A stretch of 63,208 nt of DNA, filler included, from an uncultured Methanosarcinales archaeon (GTDB lineage Archaea > Nanobdellota > Nanobdellia > Woesearchaeales > JACPBV01), in NCBI GenBank assembly GCA_964492935.1. It is 3 parts of 3 records of this genome, joined end to end, with 100 filler letters (N's around TTAATTAATTAA, not from the genome) between each part and the next. Parts side by side here need not be neighbours in the genome. Positions count along the whole stretch, not along the records: positions 1 to 30,632 come from CAZBLF010000012.1; positions 30,733 to 59,978 come from CAZBLF010000013.1; 1 more part is not named here. The stretch is one strand, 5' to 3'. Positions 29,243 through 40,449 of the stretch are shown here, piece after piece. Under the pieces are notes generated by a model. The model was given only the letters and a program-made list of their open reading frames with translations, was not told the DNA's origin and did not search any database. The position numbers and the translations under genes were made by a program. Numbering within the stretch: the first letter of the stretch is position 1; the number at the start of each line of letters is the position of its first letter.

Positions 29243-29312
29243 TTTGTTTATTTCTGCAATCCACTATAAAAAAGTATGGTAATGATTTGACTTGGGAGAC
29301 TTCAAAGCAAAT

Positions 29313-29468
29313 GCATAGCACCTTCGAAATCTTGTTGGAGTTCTAGATGGCTGACATTTCCCGTGGTTTGAAGCGAGCGAGAAGCTAGCCTCTCGCAACA
29401 GCACAACCCCTTTGTCAGTATTCTTCACCCATCGAAGGATTTCGACTGGATGATGCTATGCCATTCCA
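29313..29468. mobile_element. Fold-back MITE-like/structured element, copy 1, flanked by 11-bp direct repeat TCAAAGCAAAT
   Basis: Ends GCATAGCACCTTCGAAAT...ATTTCGACTGGATGATGCTATGC shared with 39697-39830; direct repeats at 29302-29312 and 29469-29479. Confidence 0.7.
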
Positions 29469-29509
29469 TCAAAGCAAATATTTAAGTAGAGTTCATTCTT
29501 CATAGGGGT

Positions 29510-30190
29510 GTGGTTAACGCAATAATTCAGTTGAAGGATGTGTGGAAGGTCTACACGATGGGGGAGGTTAAGGTTCCTGCATTACAGGGGATCAATATCG
29601 CTGTGAAGCCAGGAGAATTTCTTGCGATTATGGGTACGTCAGGCAGTGGTAAGAGTACTGCTATGAATTTGGTGGGCTGTTTAGACATTCCGACCCGAGG
29701 CAGAGTGTATTTACAAAATCAGGACATTTCGAAGATGACTGAAAGCAATCTGGCGCAGATTCGCGGAAAGCTTATCGGATTTATTTTTCAACAATTTAAT
29801 TTAATTCCGTCGTTGAGTGCGTTAGGTAATGTGATGTTGCCGATGATCTTTCAGAATGTGCCTAAGAATGAGAGAATTAAGAAGGCGACTTCGCTTCTGA
29901 ATTTAGTTCAGCTTGGTGATCGAGTCAATCATAAACCGAATGAGTTATCAGGAGGGCAGCAGCAGCGAGTTGCTATTGCTCGATCGCTAGCAAATGATCC
30001 TGAAGTTATTTTAGCTGATGAGCCTACTGGAAATCTTGACTCCACCACAGGGCAGACGGTGATGGCTTTTCTTAAGAAATTGAATAAAAAAGAGAAAAAA
30101 ACGATTGTGATGGTCACGCATGATGCTACTACTGCGCGGCATGCAGATAGGGTTATCTTTTTACGGGATGGAAAAGTAGTTAAGCGATAG
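29510..30190 (+). CDS. ABC transporter ATP-binding protein (LolD/MacB type)
   Basis: GTSGSGKST, LSGGQQQR, LADEPTGNLD, VTHD. Confidence 0.95.
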   Translation: MVNAIIQLKDVWKVYTMGEVKVPALQGINIAVKPGEFLAIMGTSGSGKSTAMNLVGCLDIPTRGRVYLQNQDISKMTESNLAQIRGKLIGFIFQQFNLIPSLSALGNVMLPMIFQNVPKNERIKKATSLLNLVQLGDRVNHKPNELSGGQQQRVAIARSLANDPEVILADEPTGNLDSTTGQTVMAFLKKLNKKEKKTIVMVTHDATTARHADRVIFLRDGKVVKR

Positions 30191-30221
30191 AAAACATATA
30201 AAAAGAGAGTGTTGTTAAAGC

Positions 30222-30632
30222 ATGAATATGAAGAAGGTTTGGGTGTTGTTGGTTTTGCTTGTACTTATCGGTAGTTTTGCTGGTGTTGCGACTTCTAGCA
30301 CGGTGAGTAATGCCCTTACTACGTTCGCTCGTATTCGTATCACGTTGGTCAATCAGGTGCCTGATCCGGTGCAGGCAGGAGATATTGTTACGGTGCGCTT
30401 TAAGGTGGAGAATAACGGTTGGGAAAATGCGGAGGATATGATGATTGAATTACTTCCGGAGTATCCGTTTTCTCTTGTAGATGGAGAGCCCGCTTTACAG
30501 AGAATTGGTTCGGTGCATGGCAAGCAACTGGGAGATATTGGAGTTATTGTTGATTATCGTTTGAAGGTCTCGGAAAATGCCGTAGATGGAAATCATGATC
30601 TTGATTTGCGCTACAAGTTATCAAGCCTTCAA
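30222..30632 (+). CDS. S-layer-domain (COG1361-like) exported protein, truncated by contig end
   Basis: Signal peptide; PDPV.AG..V.VRF.VEN.G motif; follows ABC ATPase. Confidence 0.7.
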
Positions 30633-30732
30633 NNNNNNNNNNNNNNNNNNNNNNNNNNNNNNNNNNNNNNNNNNNNTTAATTAATTAANNNNNNNNNNNN
30701 NNNNNNNNNNNNNNNNNNNNNNNNNNNNNNNN
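30633..30732. other. Artificial contig linker
   Basis: 44 N + TTAATTAATTAA (stops in all six frames) + 44 N. Confidence 0.97.
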
Positions 30733-31296
30733 ATACGCCTTTTTACCACTATTCACTAAATCAGCACGAAGTTTCTCAGCAAGATGCAAATATTGCTGAC
30801 CCGGCTTAATCGTAACCAAAATCCCAATAGTTTCAGCTGCAATAAACCGCTTAAGATTAGCCTCACGTCTCTTCCACTGCTGCTCAATATCATTCATACC
30901 GAGCGTCTTCATCAGTGAAGAAACAGGATCCCAAATAATAATGTCAGAAACAGACTTCTGAGCAGCCTGCGATAACAAAAGAGCCTTAGGATGAAATAAC
31001 CCATCACCAATATACAAGATTGCATCAACATCATCAATTATCGAATCAGAATACGAATCATGATACGCATCACAACCCAGCACCTGGGTCGCAGCGTGAG
31101 TCCTTTTAGCCTTCGTCTCTTTAACCGTAATACCTGCCTGATCCAACTGATCTCGTACCGTTTCTAATTTCAAGAATTGAACAGAAGCAAACAAACCAAC
31201 ACTCTTCACCTTAGCTTTAGCAAAAAACTCCAAAACTTCCTTACCAAGAACAATCTCCTTCTCCCAAATCCCATCAATGAAGAGCGTGTCTACCAT
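30733..31296 (-). CDS. Diphthamide synthesis protein Dph2-like, middle/C-terminal part, truncated by contig end
   Basis: QVLGC, YIGDGLFHP, GILVTIKPGQ motifs. Confidence 0.85.
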
Positions 31297-31556
31297 CCCG
31301 TCCTCGTATAGTGATATTTATTATGTCCAAAACCAACAAGAAAATCAATTCCCAGAGTTTCCAAACCTAAAGGCAAATCACACGCACCGAAACACGAAGA
31401 ATACCAAATATAAACGCTCGCTGAAGTCTCACCTTCAATCTTATCAACAATCTCCTGAGCGCGAGTCTTCAAACCATCCGGTAGCTGAATAAGCACTTTC
31501 TTCTTACCATTAGCCTTAATTTCATCAATGACTTTTTCTAATTCTAAATCAAACAT
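31290..31556 (-). CDS. Diphthamide synthesis protein, stand-alone N-terminal domain
   Basis: QLPDGLK, CFGACD, FGH motifs of the Dph2 N-terminus. Confidence 0.85.
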   Translation of the reverse strand: MFDLELEKVIDEIKANGKKKVLIQLPDGLKTRAQEIVDKIEGETSASVYIWYSSCFGACDLPLGLETLGIDFLVGFGHNKYHYTRTGW

Positions 31557-31617
31557 AACTTCTACAGAATAGAGTTTTAGTTATAAATCTATTGAACGAA
31601 AACTTTAAATAGGAAGA

Positions 31618-31636
31618 GGTATACCAAAAGTATACC
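31618..31636. promoter_or_regulatory. Tandem GTATAC palindromes, likely toxin-antitoxin operator
   Basis: GGTATACC-AAAA-GTATACC between TTTAAATA box and GTG start. Confidence 0.55.
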
Positions 31637-31858
31637 GTGCAAGAAGTAACTACAATGAAAATCAAAAGAACAACCAAGCGAGCTTTAGATAGCATTCGCA
31701 AAAGCACAGAAAGCTACGACGAGACAATAAAAAGATTGGTTGCACAAAAGGAGGATCAAAACCTACGAAAGTTACTGATCGAAGGATATACTCAAAAAGC
31801 GAAAGAAGATCAAGAAACAGTAGCTGATTGGGATCACACCTCTCCTTCTATTGAATAA
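31637..31858 (+). CDS. Putative antitoxin
   Basis: TTMKI...L......ESYDETI.RL DNA-binding-like N-terminus, acidic C-terminus; directly upstream of toxin. Confidence 0.75.
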   Translation: MQEVTTMKIKRTTKRALDSIRKSTESYDETIKRLVAQKEDQNLRKLLIEGYTQKAKEDQETVADWDHTSPSIE

Positions 31859-31859
31859 G

Positions 31860-32207
31860 ATGAAACGTGTAAAAAGGGGAGACATTTGGTTGGTGAATCT
31901 GGATCCAACTATCGGACACGAAATTAAAAAATCGAGACCTGCTGTCGTTATTCAAAATGACATTGGAAATCAGTATAGTCCCATTACAATAATTGCGCCG
32001 TTAACGTCCCAACTAAAAGAAAAACAGTACCCTTTCGAAACTCTTCTACCAAAAGAATATAGTGGATTATCAAAAGACTCAAAAGTGTTGATGAATCAAA
32101 TTCGCGCAATAGACAAGAAAAGACTCATAAAAAACATAGGAACAGTAAAAGAGGAGCTTCTTGAAGACGTAAATAAAGCTCTAAAAGTGAGTTTAGGATT
32201 GGATTGA
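31860..32207 (+). CDS. mazF: PemK/MazF family toxin endoribonuclease
   Basis: RGDIWLVNLDP..GHE..K.RPAVVIQND, QIRAIDK.RL. Confidence 0.93.
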   Translation: MKRVKRGDIWLVNLDPTIGHEIKKSRPAVVIQNDIGNQYSPITIIAPLTSQLKEKQYPFETLLPKEYSGLSKDSKVLMNQIRAIDKKRLIKNIGTVKEELLEDVNKALKVSLGLD

Positions 32208-33923
32208 GGATAGAGACTTAGCCATATAACAATCTTCCCTAGAATAACCTAATTTACGATAATATTCTCGAGCCCCAACACCACTAATTACTAGCATCTT
32301 ATCCTTTCCATTCGAAGTAGCTATCTTCTCAGCCTCAGCCATCAAAGCACGACCAACGCCCTTATGTTGCGTATTCTCCCCAGCAGCACCAATCGCCGTT
32401 GCACTGCCATACACGTGCAATTCTCGAATCATCCCAGACGTAAGTGTAATTGCGGGATGTAATGACCTAGGCACAAAACGTAATCGACAAAAACCAAGAA
32501 TTTTATCCGAAGCTTCCATCGAAATAAAATATTCAGTACCACCAGAAGCCTCATACGAGGAAACAACAATAGACGGCTCACCCTCAACCTGACCCAATCC
32601 AATCTCCCGAGCTCGAATATCACGAAGCACAACATTCTTTTCGTCAGCAAGCTTGTCAACATACTGCCTCAAATTCGTCTTATCAACGCCAGCTTCCGTA
32701 ACATTCGTCGGAATGTCTCGCTGAACACGCATCACCCTACACCAAGAAGGAATAAAACGATACGCATCCACAATAATTGAAGCTGCCTGAGCAGTAGTAA
32801 TCGGCTTATAAATTCCAGCTTCATAATCCTTAACTAATGGTGTACCTGGCATCACCATACACGGATAAATCTTAATCATATCTGGCATATAACCAGAATC
32901 ACTAAACATAGCCTTCAACGATGCCATATCTTTTGCACGCGACAATACCTTGCCATTCTTTCCAGGTAACCCTGGCATCACATGAAAGTTCAACTTAAAC
33001 CCTAAATCACGCAAGTCAGCAATACTCTTCAAGGTATCTTTAACCGTATGACCGCGATGTGTCCTCAACAACACCTCATCGTATATAGTTTGCACCCCTA
33101 ATTCAATTCTAGTTACACCTTGCTTCAATAATTCCAAACCATGCGAAGCAAAACCCCAGTCCGGCTTCGTTTCAATCGTCAATCCAATACAACGAATAGC
33201 GGCTTTCTCATTAAGTTCCTGCTCCTCTTCAAGCGTCTTTACATCTTTCGACTTCAGAGCAAGCACCTTACTAGCAACCTTAGCTTCACGCTCTTTATCA
33301 CCAACCTTTCCAGGCAATTCAAAGAACTTCTTAAACGCAACAAGATCCAATTTCCCAGAACTAAAAAACAGTTTAGAAAAGTCATTATACGCCTTAAAAG
33401 AATAGTAGATATACGATTCACGATACTTTGGAGGAAATCCAGTAAACGTACCGCCCATAATAATCTGATCAACCTTATCACAATTCTGTCCAAGAACAAT
33501 ATACTGCTCTAAGCGATTAAACACAATTCTGTACGCATCGTACTCATTCCGAATCCCGCGCATCGTTGAAGGCTCATTACCGGTATACGACATCGGCACG
33601 TCACCAAAAGACGAACCTAAACCACCCGGACAGAACGTGCATGCACCATGCGGACATTTGTAAGGTTTCGTCATCGTAGCAACAACCGAAACTCCACTAC
33701 CTGTGCGCATCGGCTTCGTAGTCAGACAAGACCTAATCACCGAAGCATCCTCACTATCAGCATGCAAATAAATCTCGATATCCGTAGGAATATGTCTTTG
33801 TTTAAACTTCTTACAAAGCTTCAGCTTATACAATGCTAATTGTGACTTTGTAGGCTTCTCCTTCTTTATCCACGAAATGAGCACAGGATAAAAATCAGAG
33901 TGCTCCTCAACCAATGCTTTCAT
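32193..33923 (-). CDS. elp3: Elp3 tRNA uridine(34) acetyltransferase (radical SAM plus GNAT)
   Basis: CPHGACTFCPGG, ETKPD, RVQRDIP, IRELHVYG, QHKGVG. Confidence 0.95.
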   Translation of the reverse strand: MKALVEEHSDFYPVLISWIKKEKPTKSQLALYKLKLCKKFKQRHIPTDIEIYLHADSEDASVIRSCLTTKPMRTGSGVSVVATMTKPYKCPHGACTFCPGGLGSSFGDVPMSYTGNEPSTMRGIRNEYDAYRIVFNRLEQYIVLGQNCDKVDQIIMGGTFTGFPPKYRESYIYYSFKAYNDFSKLFFSSGKLDLVAFKKFFELPGKVGDKEREAKVASKVLALKSKDVKTLEEEQELNEKAAIRCIGLTIETKPDWGFASHGLELLKQGVTRIELGVQTIYDEVLLRTHRGHTVKDTLKSIADLRDLGFKLNFHVMPGLPGKNGKVLSRAKDMASLKAMFSDSGYMPDMIKIYPCMVMPGTPLVKDYEAGIYKPITTAQAASIIVDAYRFIPSWCRVMRVQRDIPTNVTEAGVDKTNLRQYVDKLADEKNVVLRDIRAREIGLGQVEGEPSIVVSSYEASGGTEYFISMEASDKILGFCRLRFVPRSLHPAITLTSGMIRELHVYGSATAIGAAGENTQHKGVGRALMAEAEKIATSNGKDKMLVISGVGAREYYRKLGYSREDCYMAKSLSSIQS

Positions 33924-34016
33924 ACCAAGAGAATGCTTTCTGCATTTAAAAAGGGCACTCTCTAGATGGTGGATACAAACACTTAAAAACGAAGTTACGC
34001 TCTCAATAACACTAAA

Positions 34017-35093
34017 ATGCCACGAAAAACGATAGCAAATTTCGAGTTGGAATACCTGCAGATAATGGACGAAACAGGTAGTGTAGACCAAGAGTTAATG
34101 CCAAAAATAGAGAAAGAACGCCTAAAAGAACTCTACAAAACCATGCTTCTCGCAAGAACATTTGACACTAAACTATTAGCACTACAAAGACAAGGACGTA
34201 TCGGAACATTCCCGCAAGCAACAGGACAAGAAGCAGCCGCAATAGGACCTGCAGCATGCCTAGAAAAAGACGATTGGTACATCCCATCATACAGGGAATT
34301 CGCAGGCTTATTTTTAAGAAAAATGCCTCTCAGCAACGTCATTCTTTCCTTTTCAGGAGACGAGCGAGGCAATAAAAACAACAGCGAATACAAAAACTAT
34401 CCGCTAACCTTCCCCATCGGCTCCCAACTACCGCAAGCAACCGGAATCGCAATGGGAATGCAACTAGAGAAAAAGAAAAACGTAGTTGTTGTCTACTGCG
34501 GAGATGGAGCAACCTCAGAAGGGGACTTCCATGAATCATTAAATTTCGCTTCTGTTACAAAAGCACCCATCATCTTCATCGTTCAAAATAACCAATACGC
34601 TATCTCCACCCCCATCAAATTACAAACTTCATCACAAACATTCGCACAAAAAGGAATTGCATACGATATTCCCTCAATAAAAGTAGATGGAAATGATACA
34701 CTAGCCATGTTTGCAGCAACCCAAGAAGCTATACAAAGAGCTAAGCTCCATCAAGGCCCCACCCTAATCGAAGCATTCACCTACCGCATCTGCGATCACA
34801 CCTCAGCAGATGACGCTAAGAGATATCGCAGCGAAGAAGAATTAGAATCATGGAAGAAAAAAGATCCACTAACACGATTAAAGATCTACCTCGAGAAAGA
34901 AAACATATGGACGGATAAAGACGAACAACAAACCGAGAAAGAAAACGAAGAAACCATAGCAAAAGCGATCGAGGAAGCAGATGCGCTACCAGCAGTAACA
35001 CCAGAAGACATGTTCCAATATATGTATGAAGACATGCCAGACAATCTCAAAGAACAGCTAGAAGACTGCAAGAAATTCAAGAAAAATGAATAA
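34017..35093 (+). CDS. pdhA: 2-oxoacid (pyruvate) dehydrogenase E1 alpha
   Basis: GQEA, GDGATSEG...NNQYAIS TPP motif, HTSADD. Confidence 0.92.
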   Translation: MPRKTIANFELEYLQIMDETGSVDQELMPKIEKERLKELYKTMLLARTFDTKLLALQRQGRIGTFPQATGQEAAAIGPAACLEKDDWYIPSYREFAGLFLRKMPLSNVILSFSGDERGNKNNSEYKNYPLTFPIGSQLPQATGIAMGMQLEKKKNVVVVYCGDGATSEGDFHESLNFASVTKAPIIFIVQNNQYAISTPIKLQTSSQTFAQKGIAYDIPSIKVDGNDTLAMFAATQEAIQRAKLHQGPTLIEAFTYRICDHTSADDAKRYRSEEELESWKKKDPLTRLKIYLEKENIWTDKDEQQTEKENEETIAKAIEEADALPAVTPEDMFQYMYEDMPDNLKEQLEDCKKFKKNE

Positions 35094-36060
35094 AATAAAC
35101 ATGGCACAAGCCATCACCCAAGCATTGGAAGCAGAGATGCAGGCAGATGAGAAAGTACTTGTCCTAGGAGAGGACGTCGGCCTCAATGGAGGAGTCTTTA
35201 GAGCAACCGATGGACTCCAAAAAACGTTTGGAGAGCAACGAGTTATCGACACTCCCTTAGCAGAATCCGGCATCATAGGAACCTCCGTAGGATTATCCAT
35301 CTATGGCTTCAAACCTGTTGCAGAAATTCAATTCTCAGGATTCATGTACCCCGGATTCAATCAACTAGTAACTGCTGCAGCAAGATTAAGAAACCGAACA
35401 CGAGGCGAGTTCACAATTCCCTTAGTAGTGAGAATGCCATACGGTGGAGGAATAAGGGCACTAGAACATCATTCCGAAAGCATGGAAGCTCTCTATGCCC
35501 ACATCCCCGGACTAAAAGTAGTTATCCCCTCATCACCAAAAGAAGCGTATGGACTTCTAAGAGCAGCAATCCAAGATCCCGATCCCGTTGTCTTTATGGA
35601 ACCAAAACGAATCTACAGAGCAATTAAGGAAGAAGTAAAAGAAGATCAAGAACCCATCCCATTAGGAAAAGCGAAAATAACTAAAGAGGGAGATGAATGT
35701 ACCGTTATCGCATATGGTGCAATGCACTGGGTAGCACAAAAAGCAATCGCTCAATTAGGTTACAAATATCACATCGAGCTCATCGATCTAAGAACCATCT
35801 CACCATTAGACACAGAAACCATCATCAAAAGCGTAAAAAAGACAGGACGCTGTGTCATCACCCATGAAGCACCAAGATCATACGGTGTAGCAGCAGAGAT
35901 CATCGCACAAATTAACGAAAAAGCACTCTACGAACTCCAAGCACCCGTAGAACGAGTTACTGGCTACGACACCATCATGCCCTATTACCAAAATGAAACA
36001 AACTATATTCCCGATGAAGAAAAGATCGTTGCAGCAATAGAAAGAGTTATGAAGGAATAA
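35086..36060 (+). CDS. pdhB: 2-oxoacid (pyruvate) dehydrogenase E1 beta
   Basis: GEDVG..GGVFRAT, DTPLAE, EHHSES, DPV.F.EPK. Confidence 0.93.
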   Translation: MNKINMAQAITQALEAEMQADEKVLVLGEDVGLNGGVFRATDGLQKTFGEQRVIDTPLAESGIIGTSVGLSIYGFKPVAEIQFSGFMYPGFNQLVTAAARLRNRTRGEFTIPLVVRMPYGGGIRALEHHSESMEALYAHIPGLKVVIPSSPKEAYGLLRAAIQDPDPVVFMEPKRIYRAIKEEVKEDQEPIPLGKAKITKEGDECTVIAYGAMHWVAQKAIAQLGYKYHIELIDLRTISPLDTETIIKSVKKTGRCVITHEAPRSYGVAAEIIAQINEKALYELQAPVERVTGYDTIMPYYQNETNYIPDEEKIVAAIERVMKE

Positions 36061-36091
36061 ATTAATAAAGAAGAACAAACAGGTGAACACT

Positions 36092-36850
36092 ATGGCAGAA
36101 GAAAAAGACCAATATGGAAACATTGAGAAGATACCCGTAAAAGGAGTTCGAAAAAAGATCTTCAAACATATGATTGAAGCTACGCATCAGTCAGCAGCGG
36201 TAACACATATGGACGAAGCCGATGTAACCGAATTAGATGCACTGATAAAGAAAGAGAAAGAAAAATACAAGAAAAAAGGCATTAAAGTGACAATGATGCC
36301 CTATCTCGTAAAAGCAATCGTTGCTACGCTAAAGAAAAACCCCTATTTCAACGCACATGTTGACGACACCAGCGAAAACATCCTTCTCAAGAAATACTAC
36401 AACATTGGCGTTGCAGTAAACACCGACGCAGGGTTAATCGTTCCAGTAGTAAAAGATGCAGATAAGAAATCTATCGAAGAAATAGCGCATGAAATCTTTG
36501 ACCTTGCCGCAAGATGCAATGACCGGAAGGTAAAACTTGATGAACTGAAAGGCGGCACCTTTACCATCAGTAACGTTGGCGCTATTGGAGGAATCTTCGT
36601 CACCCCCATCTTGAATTACCCAGAAATATCCATCCTTGCTACAGGAAGAACAAAAGAAAAGCCAGTTGTCGTTAAAGGAGAAATAGTAATACGAAAAATG
36701 TTACCGCTCTCATTAACGTTTGACCACCGTGTCATTGATGGAGCAGAAGCAGCAAAGTTCTGCAACGAATTGAAAGAGTATCTAGAATCCACCGAAGTGC
36801 TCCTAGCAGAGATCAACGAATCCAAAGCGGACTCCATAGGACCGTTCTAA
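36092..36850 (+). CDS. Dihydrolipoamide acyltransferase E2, catalytic domain only
   Basis: GGTFTISNVG and DHRVIDGA; no lipoyl or subunit-binding domain; GGTGA RBS upstream. Confidence 0.9.
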   Translation: MAEEKDQYGNIEKIPVKGVRKKIFKHMIEATHQSAAVTHMDEADVTELDALIKKEKEKYKKKGIKVTMMPYLVKAIVATLKKNPYFNAHVDDTSENILLKKYYNIGVAVNTDAGLIVPVVKDADKKSIEEIAHEIFDLAARCNDRKVKLDELKGGTFTISNVGAIGGIFVTPILNYPEISILATGRTKEKPVVVKGEIVIRKMLPLSLTFDHRVIDGAEAAKFCNELKEYLESTEVLLAEINESKADSIGPF

Positions 36851-36853
36851 AAG

Positions 36854-37579
36854 ATGGCTGGAGCATCTCATCTCAGATTAATCACCCATTCACCTGAAGA
36901 AAATCCAGATTGGAATCTCATAGACTCAGAACTTATCTTTGCTTCATTTTTTTCTCCTACAGCAAATCCGCAAATTCAGAGTATAGCCCCAAATGGCGAA
37001 TACGATGGCAGAATGAAAGCTGAGCACAAGAGAAAAATTGCGGGTGCTAGGTCATATGATCCTTCAACGATAGTCGAGTATGCTTGTGCTTTTCTTGATA
37101 TGAGTGAAGAAGGATGTATCGATTTCGCAACAAGGGTAGCAATGTTAGACAGTGAACCAGAAGATGTTGCTGCAATGAGCATCATAACAATAATACCTAA
37201 GGTGCGAGAAACTATCGGCATAGCTATACGTGACAGCTCAAATATTCCATTAGACATGAGTTCATTTAACTCCTCAGAAGATAAAACCTCTCTCCTGGTG
37301 GGCGTTCAATACCGACTGTGCCCATTTACCGAATACAGAAGATCCTTGTATGAACCAATTGCTCAAAGTATAGGACCTCTTGTATTGAATGCAAGAATTG
37401 ATAAACAGGAAGAAAGATTTGCCAATCTCCTTTTTGAAGAAAGAAAGCCCTTGTTAGAAGAATTTTTCTCATTGAGCCATCGTGCACCCCTCACCATGCT
37501 GGGAATCGCAAACCATATTGATTCCACATATATACACACACTACAAAATCCGGAATTTTACTATGGGGGAAGAGCATGA
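36854..37579 (+). CDS. Hypothetical protein
   Basis: 241-aa ORF tightly packed between E2 and NUDIX genes. Confidence 0.6.
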   Translation: MAGASHLRLITHSPEENPDWNLIDSELIFASFFSPTANPQIQSIAPNGEYDGRMKAEHKRKIAGARSYDPSTIVEYACAFLDMSEEGCIDFATRVAMLDSEPEDVAAMSIITIIPKVRETIGIAIRDSSNIPLDMSSFNSSEDKTSLLVGVQYRLCPFTEYRRSLYEPIAQSIGPLVLNARIDKQEERFANLLFEERKPLLEEFFSLSHRAPLTMLGIANHIDSTYIHTLQNPEFYYGGRA

Positions 37580-37989
37580 AGTTAAGTAAAAGCGCCGGTG
37601 GAGCCGTCCTTAATCAAGATAAAGTCCTTGTAGTCAATCAAAACCACAATTCTTGGTCACTTCCAAAAGGCCATATAGACCCGGGAGAAGACGCATTAAC
37701 CGCAGCCAGAAGAGAAATCAAAGAAGAATCCGGAATCTCCGAATTAACCTTCATCAAAGAGCTAGGAAACTACGAAAGACATAAGATAGGAAAGCATGGC
37801 GAGGGCGACGAAATAAGAGAACTAAAACACATCACCATGTTCCTCTTCAAAACCGACCAACAAGAACTCAAACCAGAAGATCCCGACAATCCAGAAGCGA
37901 GATGGGTAGACATCCATGAAGTCTCTAAACTCTTAACCCACAAAAAAGACAAAGAATTCTTTGAATCTGTTAAAGCAGAACTTAACTAG
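37576..37989 (+). CDS. NUDIX hydrolase (Ap4A hydrolase-like)
   Basis: WSLPKGHIDPGE....AARREIKEESGI Nudix box. Confidence 0.92.
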   Translation: MKLSKSAGGAVLNQDKVLVVNQNHNSWSLPKGHIDPGEDALTAARREIKEESGISELTFIKELGNYERHKIGKHGEGDEIRELKHITMFLFKTDQQELKPEDPDNPEARWVDIHEVSKLLTHKKDKEFFESVKAELN

Positions 37990-39652
37990 TAATAGCACCA
38001 GTAGAAGCACTAGAAACCAATTTCGCATACTTATACAACGCACCGCTCTTATACTTGATTTCCTTTTTCTTCCAATCCTTAAGACGTGAAGCAATCTCAT
38101 CATCAGACAACTCAACATGCAACAATTTCTCTCCAGAATCAATAGTAATCATATCTCCATCCCTTACAGCAGCAATCACACCCTTCTCCTGAGCCTCTGG
38201 AGTAACATGTCCAACAACAATCCCATGCGATCCACCAGAAAACCGTCCATCAGTAATCAAACCAACCTTCTTATGCAATCCTCGTCCAGCCAATGCAGCA
38301 GTAGGACTTAACATCTCCCTCATCCCGGGACCGCCTTTCGGACCTTCATAACGAATAACAATAGTATCACCCTCAACCACGCTACCATCCAAAATAGCCT
38401 TCAGACAATCCTCCTCGTTCTCATAAACGCGAGCAGGACCCGTATGACTAACCGTGTCTAAACCACACGTCTTCAACACAGCCCCATCCGAAGCCAAATT
38501 ACCTTTCAAAATCATAAAGGAACCGCGACTCTTAACGGGATCTGAAAGAGCATGAACAACATCCTGACCTTCTAGCTTAACCGAAACATCAGCAAGATTC
38601 TCAGCAACCGTCTTTCCCGTAACCGTCATGCAATCTCCATGCAATAGCTTAGCTTCAAGCAACATCTTCATCACCATCTGCACCCCGCCTGCTTTATCCA
38701 AATCAGTCATCACATACTTCCCAGCCGGCTTCATATCAGCAACCGTTGGAGTTGAATCTGAAAACGCATTAAACTCATCAATAGATAGATCAACTTCAGC
38801 TTCACGAGCAAGAGCAAGTAAATGTAATGCAGCATTAGTACTGCCTCCTAAAGCCATAACCACACGAATCGCATTCTCAAATGCCTTTTTCGTCATAATA
38901 TCACGAGGCCTAATACCGTTCTCAATCAATGCAACCAAAGCCTTGCCAGAATCCTCCATCATCTGTTCCATACGCTTGCCTTCAGCAGGCAAAGAAGCAT
39001 TACCTGTTAGCGACATCCCAATTGCCTCCATAGCAGAGCTCATCGTATTAGCAGTATACATCCCACCGCAAGCCCCAGCTCCCGGACAGGCAGAACATTC
39101 AACCTCTTTAGCATCTTCCTCAGTCATTTTTCCAGGCGCTACACTACCAACAGCCTCAAACGCAGAAACAATATCAATATCTTTTCCCTTATACTTTCCA
39201 GGCGCAATCGTCCCGCCATACACAAAGATCGACGGAATATTAAGACGAGCCATCGGCATAACTGAACCAGGAATCGTTTTATCACAAGCCCCAATACCTA
39301 AGATAGCATCAAATTGATGTCCACGACTAACTAATTCAATAGTATCTGCAATAACTTCACGAGAAATCAAAGAACACTTCATCCCCTCATGACCCATAGC
39401 CTCGCCATCAGTCACAATAAACGTGTTATACTTCATGGCGTACCCGCCACTCGCCTTTACACCATTTTTAGCGTGCACCGCCAATCCATCAAGATGCATA
39501 TTACAAGGCGAAACCTCAGAACCAGCACTTGCTACACCAATTAAAGGCTTAGAAAAATCAGCATCCTTCATCCCTGCAGCCCGCAACATAGCCCGATTAG
39601 GAAGTCTTTCAATCCCAGCAGTCATCGTCTTTGAAGTAGCATTCATTTCCAT
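37982..39652 (-). CDS. ilvD: Dihydroxy-acid dehydratase
   Basis: PCNMHL, CDKT.PG, CGGMYTANTM, GPGMREM, TDGRFSG. Confidence 0.95.
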   Translation of the reverse strand: MEMNATSKTMTAGIERLPNRAMLRAAGMKDADFSKPLIGVASAGSEVSPCNMHLDGLAVHAKNGVKASGGYAMKYNTFIVTDGEAMGHEGMKCSLISREVIADTIELVSRGHQFDAILGIGACDKTIPGSVMPMARLNIPSIFVYGGTIAPGKYKGKDIDIVSAFEAVGSVAPGKMTEEDAKEVECSACPGAGACGGMYTANTMSSAMEAIGMSLTGNASLPAEGKRMEQMMEDSGKALVALIENGIRPRDIMTKKAFENAIRVVMALGGSTNAALHLLALAREAEVDLSIDEFNAFSDSTPTVADMKPAGKYVMTDLDKAGGVQMVMKMLLEAKLLHGDCMTVTGKTVAENLADVSVKLEGQDVVHALSDPVKSRGSFMILKGNLASDGAVLKTCGLDTVSHTGPARVYENEEDCLKAILDGSVVEGDTIVIRYEGPKGGPGMREMLSPTAALAGRGLHKKVGLITDGRFSGGSHGIVVGHVTPEAQEKGVIAAVRDGDMITIDSGEKLLHVELSDDEIASRLKDWKKKEIKYKSGALYKYAKLVSSASTGAITS

Positions 39653-39696
39653 ACTACCTTCGATTGCTACTTAATTTAAAAAGCTTTCTCAGAATA

Positions 39697-39830
39697 GTAT
39701 GTGCATAGCACCTTCGAAATTCTTGCTCTTGACTTCTGAAGGTGCTGCGTCCCCGGATGGGGCAACCCCGCGCAACGCACTTAATTCTGAGGTATCAATG
39801 AATTTCGACCTGGTGATGCTATGCACATAC
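39697..39830. mobile_element. Fold-back MITE-like/structured element, copy 2, 14-bp perfect terminal inverted repeats, 8-bp direct repeat TCAGAATA
   Basis: GTATGTGCATAGCA...TGCTATGCACATAC; direct repeats at 39689-39696 and 39831-39838; ends shared with copy 1. Confidence 0.75.
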
Positions 39831-39840
39831 TCAGAATAAG

Positions 39841-40449
39841 CTATTCCTTAAAACCAGAAACATAACCCAAAGAACTAGCAATCTTAGCAACATCTTCTTT
39901 CCCATCTAACAACAGAGAAGTCGAATCCCACGTACCCTCAAGCAACGCCTTCCGAGACGAAGAAACCATCGAACCATTCACCGATTTACCAGCATAAATA
40001 ACCTGCTGCTTCTCCGCATCTAGAGTAATAGCTTCAGTAGGATGCGAATCAATAAACGACATCAACTCAGTTATCTCTGAATGAGACAACACAAGAGTAG
40101 GAATTCCCAACATCGTACAATTGCCGGCAAAGATTTCAGCAAAACTTTCACCGATAACAGCCTTAATCCCCCACCGCAATAACGACTGAGGAGCGTGCTC
40201 ACGCGAACTACCACACCCAAAGTTCTTATTCACAACAAGAATAGAAGCCTTTGAAAACTTTTCATCATTAAACGGATGCTCTTTCTTATTGCCCTCAGCA
40301 TCATGACGAGCATCGTGAAATGCATACTGTCCTAAGGGAGCAAACGTAACCTCTTTCATATAGCGAGCCGGAATAATTCTATCAGTATCAATATCATTAC
40401 CGCGAACAAAGATACCCGAACCCTCAACCTCAGATATCAATTCAACCAA
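39841..40449 (-). CDS. leuD: 3-isopropylmalate dehydratase small subunit
   Basis: [26 protein letters not shown]. Confidence 0.95.

Follow-up and report, generated by a model that had tools for sequence, protein, structure and literature searches.

The window analysed here is a stretch of 63,208 nucleotides (nt), filler included, from the assembly GCA_964492935.1 of an uncultured archaeon placed by GTDB in the order Woesearchaeales; it consists of several contigs joined via runs of N. Two intergenic segments in it, copy 1 on contig C12 and copy 2 on contig C13, have common ends, fold back on themselves and are flanked by direct repeats, which raises the question of what they are and how they came to their sites. 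An earlier note, made from the sequence alone, proposed a non-autonomous mobile element or a mobile structured RNA. Our analysis indicates that both are very probably MITEs (miniature inverted-repeat transposable elements), moved in trans by an IS66-family DDE transposase of 442 aa encoded in a single open reading frame (ORF), and that they belong to a superfamily spread through one DPANN archaeal order. The elements are short and non-coding, have terminal inverted repeats, carry a target duplication per copy and exist in many dispersed copies; an empty site and an autonomous element with the same termini were also found. Below, this genome (57 contigs, 1.15 Mb, 42% G+C) is called G000 and its congener G001; C numbers given without a genome are contigs of G000, and L058, L060, L063 and L064 are metagenome loci.

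Two elements with common ends

Both elements are present at 29313-29468 and 39697-39830, as the earlier note had claimed. The left-end 18-mer common to both, GCATAGCACCTTCGAAAT, occurs exactly twice in the window where shuffles lead one to expect 0.07 occurrences, and the right-end pattern exactly twice where 0.02 are expected, in agreement with the claim of common ends. The direct repeats, 11 bp at copy 1 and 8 bp at copy 2, were likewise confirmed. Neither element (156 and 134 nt) is coding; copy 1 is touched by a single ORF, a frame of 54 aa on the strand opposite to it. Iterated nhmmer searches, run to convergence, found 31 full copies (23 distinct sequences) and one fragment in G000. The covariance model R1, which was built from the 23 distinct copies with 10 alignment columns trimmed per side, recovered the same 31. 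Genome-wide, 10 exact matches to the left 18-mer are present. Copy 2 represents a type, type B, that is present at nine loci with 134/134 positions identical. The two elements and their borders are as follows.

29302-29312, no strand: left 11-bp direct repeat of copy 1, TCAAAGCAAAT; the same 11-mer is present once at the G001 empty site
29313-29468, plus strand: copy 1, long 'type A' variant, 156 nt; R1 score 65.1 bits
29462-29468, plus strand: degenerate right tip of copy 1, CATTCCA; the left terminal hexamer is absent
29469-29479, no strand: right 11-bp direct repeat of copy 1, adjoining the TATA-like ATATTTAAG of an ABC-transporter gene that starts at 29510
39689-39696, no strand: left 8-bp target-site duplication of copy 2, TCAGAATA
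39697-39830, plus strand: copy 2, 'type B' MITE, 134 bp; R1 score 89.3 bits, fold -56.9 kcal/mol, z -6.9
39697-39710 and 39817-39830, plus strand: inverted termini of copy 2, 14 bp, perfect, GTATGTGCATAGCA / TGCTATGCACATAC
39831-39838, no strand: copy 2, target-site duplication on the right, 8 bp; 2 nt beyond it is the stop codon of leuD, which ends at 39841

Target duplications and an empty site

All nine type-B copies end in the same 14-bp perfect inverted repeat, with the tips GTATGT...ACATAC, and each has its own 8-bp direct repeat. The hexamers GTATGT/ACATAC, previously taken for extra bases at the sides of copy 2, are thus the tips of its inverted terminus, and copy 2 is fully typical of a cut-and-paste MITE. 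The description as atypical does fit copy 1, which has lost a terminal hexamer and has an 11-bp repeat. Its terminal inverted repeat is only 8 bp; the absence of the left hexamer and the degeneracy of the right one (CATTCC) explain its unequal extra terminal bases. Elements of G001 that are closely related to copy 1 carry normal tips, GTATGAGTATAGCACC...GCTATGCTCATAT, together with a duplication of ~8 bp. By comparison, we infer copy 1 to be an irregular and older insertion that has lost one tip and has a duplication of 11 bp.

Repeats at the element borders are also common in the larger set. In an automated search, 44 of 92 copies from 15 genomes had an exact 8-mer repeated near their two ends, as against 2-7 of 83 controls in which the left flank of each copy was paired with the right flank of another copy.

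The flanks of copy 1 have counterparts in G001 with 80-86% identity, where they lie 15 nt apart, versus 185 nt in G000. At this site, on contig C70 of G001, there is a single TCAAAGCAAAT where G000 has 11-mer, element and 11-mer. This marks copy 1 as an insertion that duplicated 11 bp, and an empty orthologous site, one of the checks proposed in the earlier note, has been found. No clean empty site was found for the type-B copies when G001 flanks and metagenome reads were compared; at three further type-B sites in G001, one flank or none could be aligned. For copy 2, four DNA runs from four studies gave no joint across the element. In these reads, contigs break at the 134-nt repeat, and the loose ends correspond to flanks of the other copies of G000, so that samples of four studies have these insertions in common. 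The 134-nt repeat is assembled, in four public DNA runs, as a contig of its own at 8-13 times the flank depth, depths that are not copy numbers. The ilvD-leuD spacer in which copy 2 lies has been remodelled between G000 and its congener: in G001 (locus L065, contig C85:2857-3249, opposite window 39686-39896) it is ~390 nt long with a small ORF and no MITE, and in G000 it is 46 nt plus the MITE.

An autonomous partner of the IS66 family

At four contig ends of G000 the sequence breaks off inside a longer element that shares the 12-bp tip: its left end is at the end of C20 (20933-20987) and the start of C56 (1-54), and its right end at the starts of C8 and C12 (1-54 each). Because all four lie inside the same insertion sequence (IS), the assembler broke there and the genome has at least two unassembled copies. 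At one of the four, the IS end lies 18 bp from a type-B MITE. The statement in the earlier note that the window has no transposase is correct for genes; it overlooks that the window opens with the right end of this partner.

1-54, no strand: right end of the partner IS66-family IS, cut by the contig start; terminal GCTATGCACATAC at 42-54; the same 54 nt open C12 and C8 and agree with the right end of the 1544-bp IS that is complete in L058

A scan of metagenome contigs found the left end of the IS in eight stretches, four of which hold complete elements of 1543-1545 bp; two of the four come from near-identical contigs (L063, L064). The complete ISs end in GTATGTGCATAG...CTATGCACATAC, and that of L063 is flanked on both sides by the 8-bp duplication CTGTTTTC. 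The L060 IS contains one intact 442-aa ORF (L060:222-1550) in 1545 bp. This ORF matches PF03050 (DDE_Tnp_IS66) at 1.8e-38 with 133 bits (cut-off 23.1) and NF033517, the NCBIfam IS66 equivalog, at 1.5e-73 with 248 bits (cut-off 180). Because it exceeds both cut-offs, the partner is a single-ORF IS66-family insertion sequence of 1.54 kb; it is a putative member of the 'ISBst12-like' single-ORF group. Thus the metagenome contigs hold what the earlier note had suggested searching for, a longer element with a transposase between the same ends. The IS and the type-B MITE have the same terminal 12-13 bp and the same 8-bp duplication length. A 77%-identical relative, with termini GTACATGCATAGC, is present in a 'Candidatus Woesearchaeota archaeon' metagenome-assembled genome (MAG), where the only relative of the partner transposase in the species collection was found. 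Among 14 genomes of the family, the IS end pattern was found only in G000, which does not show that it is absent elsewhere, as MAGs often leave repeats unassembled.

With 31 genome copies, nine of them identical and each with a distinct 8-bp duplication, an empty site and an autonomous IS66-family partner, the proposal of a non-autonomous mobile element is borne out. MITEs and IS66 elements are both well established, so the kind to which the element belongs is not itself new. The earlier note had named an exact match to known IS ends or to an Rfam model as grounds for abandoning its family: Rfam gives none, and the match to IS66-family ends counts against novelty of kind.

Distribution in the order

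R1 matches were found in G000 and in 20 of 60 relatives from the order, making 21 of 61 genomes. Within the same family, 11 of the 13 other genomes have matches, or 9 of 11 if the unpublished G005 and G013 are left out. The search for further copies with a covariance model, likewise proposed earlier, has therefore been productive well beyond G000: copy numbers by R1 are at least 64 in the congener G001, 55 in G004, 49 in G006 and 38 in G012. When genomes were drawn evenly across the phylum, 19 of 151, G000 included, matched R1 at E up to 1e-5, and all matches listed belong to the same order. No earlier description of this MITE family was found in the literature searched, the coverage of which was incomplete and excluded ISfinder.

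Two loci of G001, L047 (contig C84) and L087 (contig C75), each hold two model matches head to tail, in L087 ~14 nt apart; because of these head-to-tail copies we conclude that MITEs insert next to or into one another in the congener. In G000, a lone left half (outer terminus, P1 and P2, helices described below) at C1:53453-53494 stops after CTTCGAAATCTGAGCTA and is a truncated copy or a rearrangement point.

A conserved four-helix rod

The interiors of the two elements had been described as different, though both folding. The folding is real. The unrelatedness is not, since both share one plan of four helices, P1-P4, to which copy 1 adds an apical module of ~38 nt. RNAalifold, applied to the 23 distinct copies, gave 25 pairs, 19 with compensatory double changes. 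The hand-refined structure consists of P1, the terminal stem; P2, TCGAAAT/ATTTCGA, which switches to TCAAAAC/GTTTTGA; P3, with an AC bulge; and P4, the apical CCCC/GGGG. In the two window copies the parts are placed as follows.

29313-29320 with 29454-29461, plus strand: P1 of copy 1
29324-29330 with 29439-29445, plus strand: P2 of copy 1
29350-29356 with 29413-29418, plus strand: P3 of copy 1
~29364-29404, plus strand: extra apical module of copy 1, stem 29377-29382 / 29391-29396
29405-29410, plus strand: conserved AACCCC of copy 1
39714-39720 with 39802-39808, plus strand: P2 of copy 2
39742-39749 with 39771-39780, plus strand: P3 of copy 2, with the AC bulge
39751-39754 with 39759-39762, plus strand: P4 of copy 2
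39763-39769, plus strand: conserved unpaired CAACCCC of copy 2

Over 88 distinct copies from 15 genomes, 93.4% of cells in the P1-P4 rod pair, versus 34.6-46.1% when partners are slid by 1-3 columns. Covariation is extensive: 23 of 26 pairs are changed on both sides, none of 500 shuffles reaches the observed values, and a 49-sequence set agrees. Since the rod sequences were aligned by the model, the structure had an advantage; the fold is safe despite this because of the slid controls and the many pair types. Among the helices singled out in the earlier note, GCATAGCA/TGCTATGC, TCGAAAT/ATTTCGA, CTGACA/TGTCAG and GTGC-TGCG/CGCA-GCAC are backed by covariation in the 88 distinct members, and so is the upstream CCCC...GGGG pairing, P4. 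The apical hairpin GGGG-CAA-CCCC that it read in copy 2 is rejected, as 81.5% of cells pair versus a shuffled mean of 81.7%, with no double change. The CGCAAC(A)GCAC that it saw in both copies occupies non-homologous positions. Readings of the conserved loops as hammerhead, K-turn or H/ACA motifs were judged by eye, and motif order and spacing did not fit.

The best-conserved letters of the element are those of P2, the apex (CCCG, CAACCCC) and the asymmetric loop (C.UUA.G), and not the termini. In some subfamilies the transposon termini lie ~22 nt outside P1 (GGCTCAGTAGAAAGTC...). This makes the rod a conserved inner module, with termini that can be exchanged. The apical loop varies as well. 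An extra hairpin module of ~38 nt, GAAGCGAGCRAGAAGC...CTCGCAACAGC, is present there in 5 of the 23 distinct G000 copies, namely copy 1 (29364-29404) and the copies at C6:33505-33641, C25:14914-15050, C4:32596-32735 and C4:54418-54560. These belong to different P1/P2/P3 classes, which points to module shuffling or a nested mini-insertion.

Insertion register beside promoters

Copy 2 abuts the promoter of ilvD, and this position recurs elsewhere.

39673-39688, minus strand: ilvD core promoter; B recognition element (BRE) GAAAGC 39688-39683, TATA box TTTTTAAATT 39682-39673, ATG 39652-39650

In all 11 type-B and B-like copies (nine and two, respectively), reading outward on one side gives the 8-bp duplication, 6 nt and a TATA box. 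The 6-nt spacers include GAAAGT, GAAAGC, GAAAAG, GAAACA, GAAATG and AAAAAG, and the box is TTTATATA in five copies. Octamers like TTTATATA peak at -30 and -29 from the ATG of long ORFs (80 and 37 of 928, together 117, at 7/8 or better), with R-A-A-A-N-N just upstream. From this position, the boxes beside the elements belong to ordinary promoters of leaderless genes, facing away from the element; most G000 genes look leaderless. By this register the target falls at about -44 to -37 relative to a leaderless gene's start. The background of in-register TATA boxes for intergenic 8-mers is 0.34% at 7/8 or better, giving P = 2e-13 for at least 7 of 11. For the IS itself, five of eight independent insertions share the register, with a TATA-like box scoring at least 6/8; the other three show one end only. 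Of the confidently bounded copies other than type B, 10 of 20 have an in-register TATA box at 6/8 or better, versus ~2 expected.

Such a register might be made by the transposase, or it might be the residue of purifying selection after random or AT-biased insertion into a genome with almost no free DNA. There is something to be said for the latter, to which we give a real if minor chance. ORFs of at least 100 aa cover ~91% of the genome, and at copy 2 just ~10 nt separate the leuD stop from the ilvD BRE. The insertions also look fixed, the copy-2 insertion and the flanks of other copies being present in four metagenome runs from four studies, and one subfamily lacks the register. Against selection, the register is base-exact in all 11 type-B and B-like copies. 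At sites C1, C4 and C23 more than 90 nt of intergenic DNA were free, yet the insertion abuts the BRE. By a hand count on site maps, ~12 other positions at C3:23594 and ~30 at C30:3296, between divergent promoter cores, would have spared both promoters. Further, the autonomous IS shares the register, and nine of the copies are identical and therefore recent, with little time for sorting. We judge that targeting by the transposase is probably a better reading than selection alone. Fixed insertion at a promoter edge or in a TATA register by IS66, archaeal ISs or MITEs was not found described in the literature searched, with the same incomplete coverage and without ISfinder.

Points that weigh against movement by the IS66-family partner

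A number of observations do not sit easily with MITEs moved by the IS66-family transposase. Only 12-13 terminal bases are common to the IS and the MITE, and the interior of the MITE is not derived from the IS. Many copies have termini unlike those of the partner (GGCTCAGTAGAAAGTC..., GTAACTGCTAACGG...). PF03050 was found in none of the five MAGs searched (G000 and four relatives), and the partner is known in G000 from its ends and elsewhere from metagenome contigs; the missing gene does not show absence, because repeats often remain unassembled in MAGs, and it is to be expected if they collapse at contig ends. Copy 1 and the copy on C31 carry repeats of 11 bp, not 8. The highest conservation is that of the apex (CCCG, CAACCCC), far from the termini, which is unusual for a MITE. 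The subfamily without the register, GTATTTGTTTAGC, is that of G004 and G012. Part of the register could also stem from purifying selection, the genome being compact. Finally, the rod has 107 G.U cells as against 44 A.C cells, with a ratio of 36 to 0 for one pair of P3, which leaves some room for a strand-specific fold.

Rival readings: a structured RNA or movement as single-stranded DNA

The last point leads to the second half of the earlier proposal. The rod might be a functional structured RNA, a new non-coding class riding in transposon termini and expressed from, or acting on, a neighbouring promoter. In favour of this, each of the four helices covaries strongly throughout an archaeal order; conservation extends to unpaired motifs (AAG ahead of P3, CAACCCC after P4, the AC bulge, and C.UUA.G in the asymmetric loop); the G.U excess is 50 to 8 within P3; a TATA box lies 14 nt from the model-strand 5' end in seven of nine type-B copies; and both window copies fold better on the model strand (z -6.9 versus -4.9 for copy 2, -4.0 versus -2.5 for copy 1). 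The wider sample gives a different picture. Among 84 usable sequences the lower fold energy is on the model strand in 43 and on the other in 39, with 2 ties (p 0.19), and 64 of the 107 G.U cells come from two helix-end columns, the bias in P1 being reversed. We have therefore dropped the G.U excess as evidence for RNA, as it rests largely on two columns and the folding energies show no strand difference. The 31 copies are randomly oriented to their neighbours (7 divergent, 7 + 7 tandem, 6 convergent, and 4 lacking a neighbour on one side). The adjacent BRE faces away from the element, the promoter may be at either element end, and neither window element has a promoter-like box inside. At gathering score Rfam gave no match anywhere in the window; when E values as high as 10 were admitted for the two elements, it gave two chance-level matches only, of 10.5 and 6.7 bits. 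Among 24 sequencing runs listed, no RNA run contained the locus. A mobile structured RNA is thus not supported; we consider an RNA function of this kind unlikely, and the rod is probably not a host RNA gene.

Movement as single-stranded DNA hairpins by an HUH/Y1 enzyme, in the manner of REP/RAYT or IS200/IS605 PATE elements, would suit an element that is as a whole a long imperfect hairpin with conserved loops and that keeps its structure while its termini vary, but it is contradicted by the 8-bp target duplications and inverted termini, neither of which, to our knowledge, is left by HUH single-strand transposition, as well as by the DDE IS66-type partner with identical termini and the absence of strand preference in folding energy, and we regard it as highly improbable.

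A model for insertion, and comparison with known elements

For MITEs moved by an IS66-family transposase, the following course of events may be proposed. The transposase would bind the termini, make an 8-bp staggered cut and pick the upstream edge of a BRE/TATA core, reading either the promoter DNA itself or DNA bent by TATA-binding protein (TBP) and transcription factor B (TFB). The chosen spot would spare the promoter and the neighbouring gene and so might let copies persist in a genome that is ~91% coding. The rod may be kept for the element's own sake: its two arms could bring the ends together for the transposase, or the hairpin could form, from either strand, in single-stranded DNA or read-through RNA. 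In its strongest form, this is a promoter-guided IS66-type transposase that reads, or is tethered to, TBP/TFB-bent DNA and works with single-base precision at the promoter edge, with the rod and its invariant apex CCCG...CAACCCC as a module of integration or promoter insulation rather than palindromic filler; it would then be an archaeal equivalent of the Ty3-TFIIIB targeting described below. We offer this version tentatively, as a possibility less likely than not.

An 8-bp target duplication is a trait of the IS66 family, and classical IS66 has three ORFs (tnpA, tnpB and tnpC) and GTAA termini. The partner resembles the family in its transposase, which passes PF03050 and NF033517, in its 8-bp duplication and in its inverted termini starting with GTA. 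It differs from classical IS66 in having a single ORF in 1.54 kb and GTATGT termini, and fits the single-ORF group. Like MITEs of that group, the present MITE has the terminal 12-13 bp and the duplication length of its partner; unlike IS66-derived MITEs, it has an interior that is not a deletion derivative of the IS.

Correia/NEMIS elements of Neisseria, ERIC, RUP and Nezha of cyanobacteria are structured bacterial MITEs that are short, intergenic and high-copy and have long hairpins, and some act as RNA after co-transcription. The present elements are likewise short, intergenic and high-copy, with long hairpins. They differ in being archaeal, in having a conserved inner rod with termini that vary by subfamily, in their BRE/TATA-tied register, and in being known from DNA sequence alone.

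According to passages of a prokaryotic MITE census made with MITE-Tracker (Nucleic Acids Res 2024, PMC11602168), archaea have 18,091 MITEs, and 'a Woesearchaea genome' with 105 MITEs per Mb is among the densest. Those passages contain no family description, partner IS, fold or target analysis, and the supplementary sequences of the census may hold members of the present family.

For the register, a functional likeness may be drawn with an unrelated element. The yeast long terminal repeat (LTR) retrotransposon Ty3 uses an integrase and integrates at RNA polymerase III start sites through TFIIIB (TBP + Brf1). The likeness, by analogy, would lie in insertion at a fixed distance from the site of a TBP/TFB-type initiation complex, with the gene spared. 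Ty3 differs in being an LTR retrotransposon; here a direct reading of the DNA sequence explains the data equally well, the evidence being the register beside BRE/TATA.

If targeting is true, these elements would be a prokaryotic example of integration guided by a promoter complex and might suggest a tool for placing DNA beside archaeal promoters without breaking them. If selection alone is at work, the register would map the bases upstream of archaeal promoters that are free to vary. Under either reading, a single MITE superfamily occupies as many as several dozen intergenic sites per Mb in the tiny genomes of a DPANN order otherwise thought streamlined. The conservation of the inner rod by compensatory change while termini swap between subfamilies inverts the pattern usual for MITEs and suggests that the rod has a function.

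Other features of the assembly

A scan of the window for tRNA and tmRNA genes found none. For annotation, the elements account for many contig breaks and 'conserved intergenic hairpins' in MAGs of this kind. Two more repeats, ~50 nt or longer, recur at G000 contig ends: GTTATTTAGCGTTTATCACTCTGC... at the starts of C26, C41 and C49 and the ends of C19, C27, C44 and C46, and AAGTGATTACTTTGACGATTCC... at the starts of C2 and C37 and the ends of C7, C15 and C26. Both probably mark where further insertion sequences, left unassembled, end.

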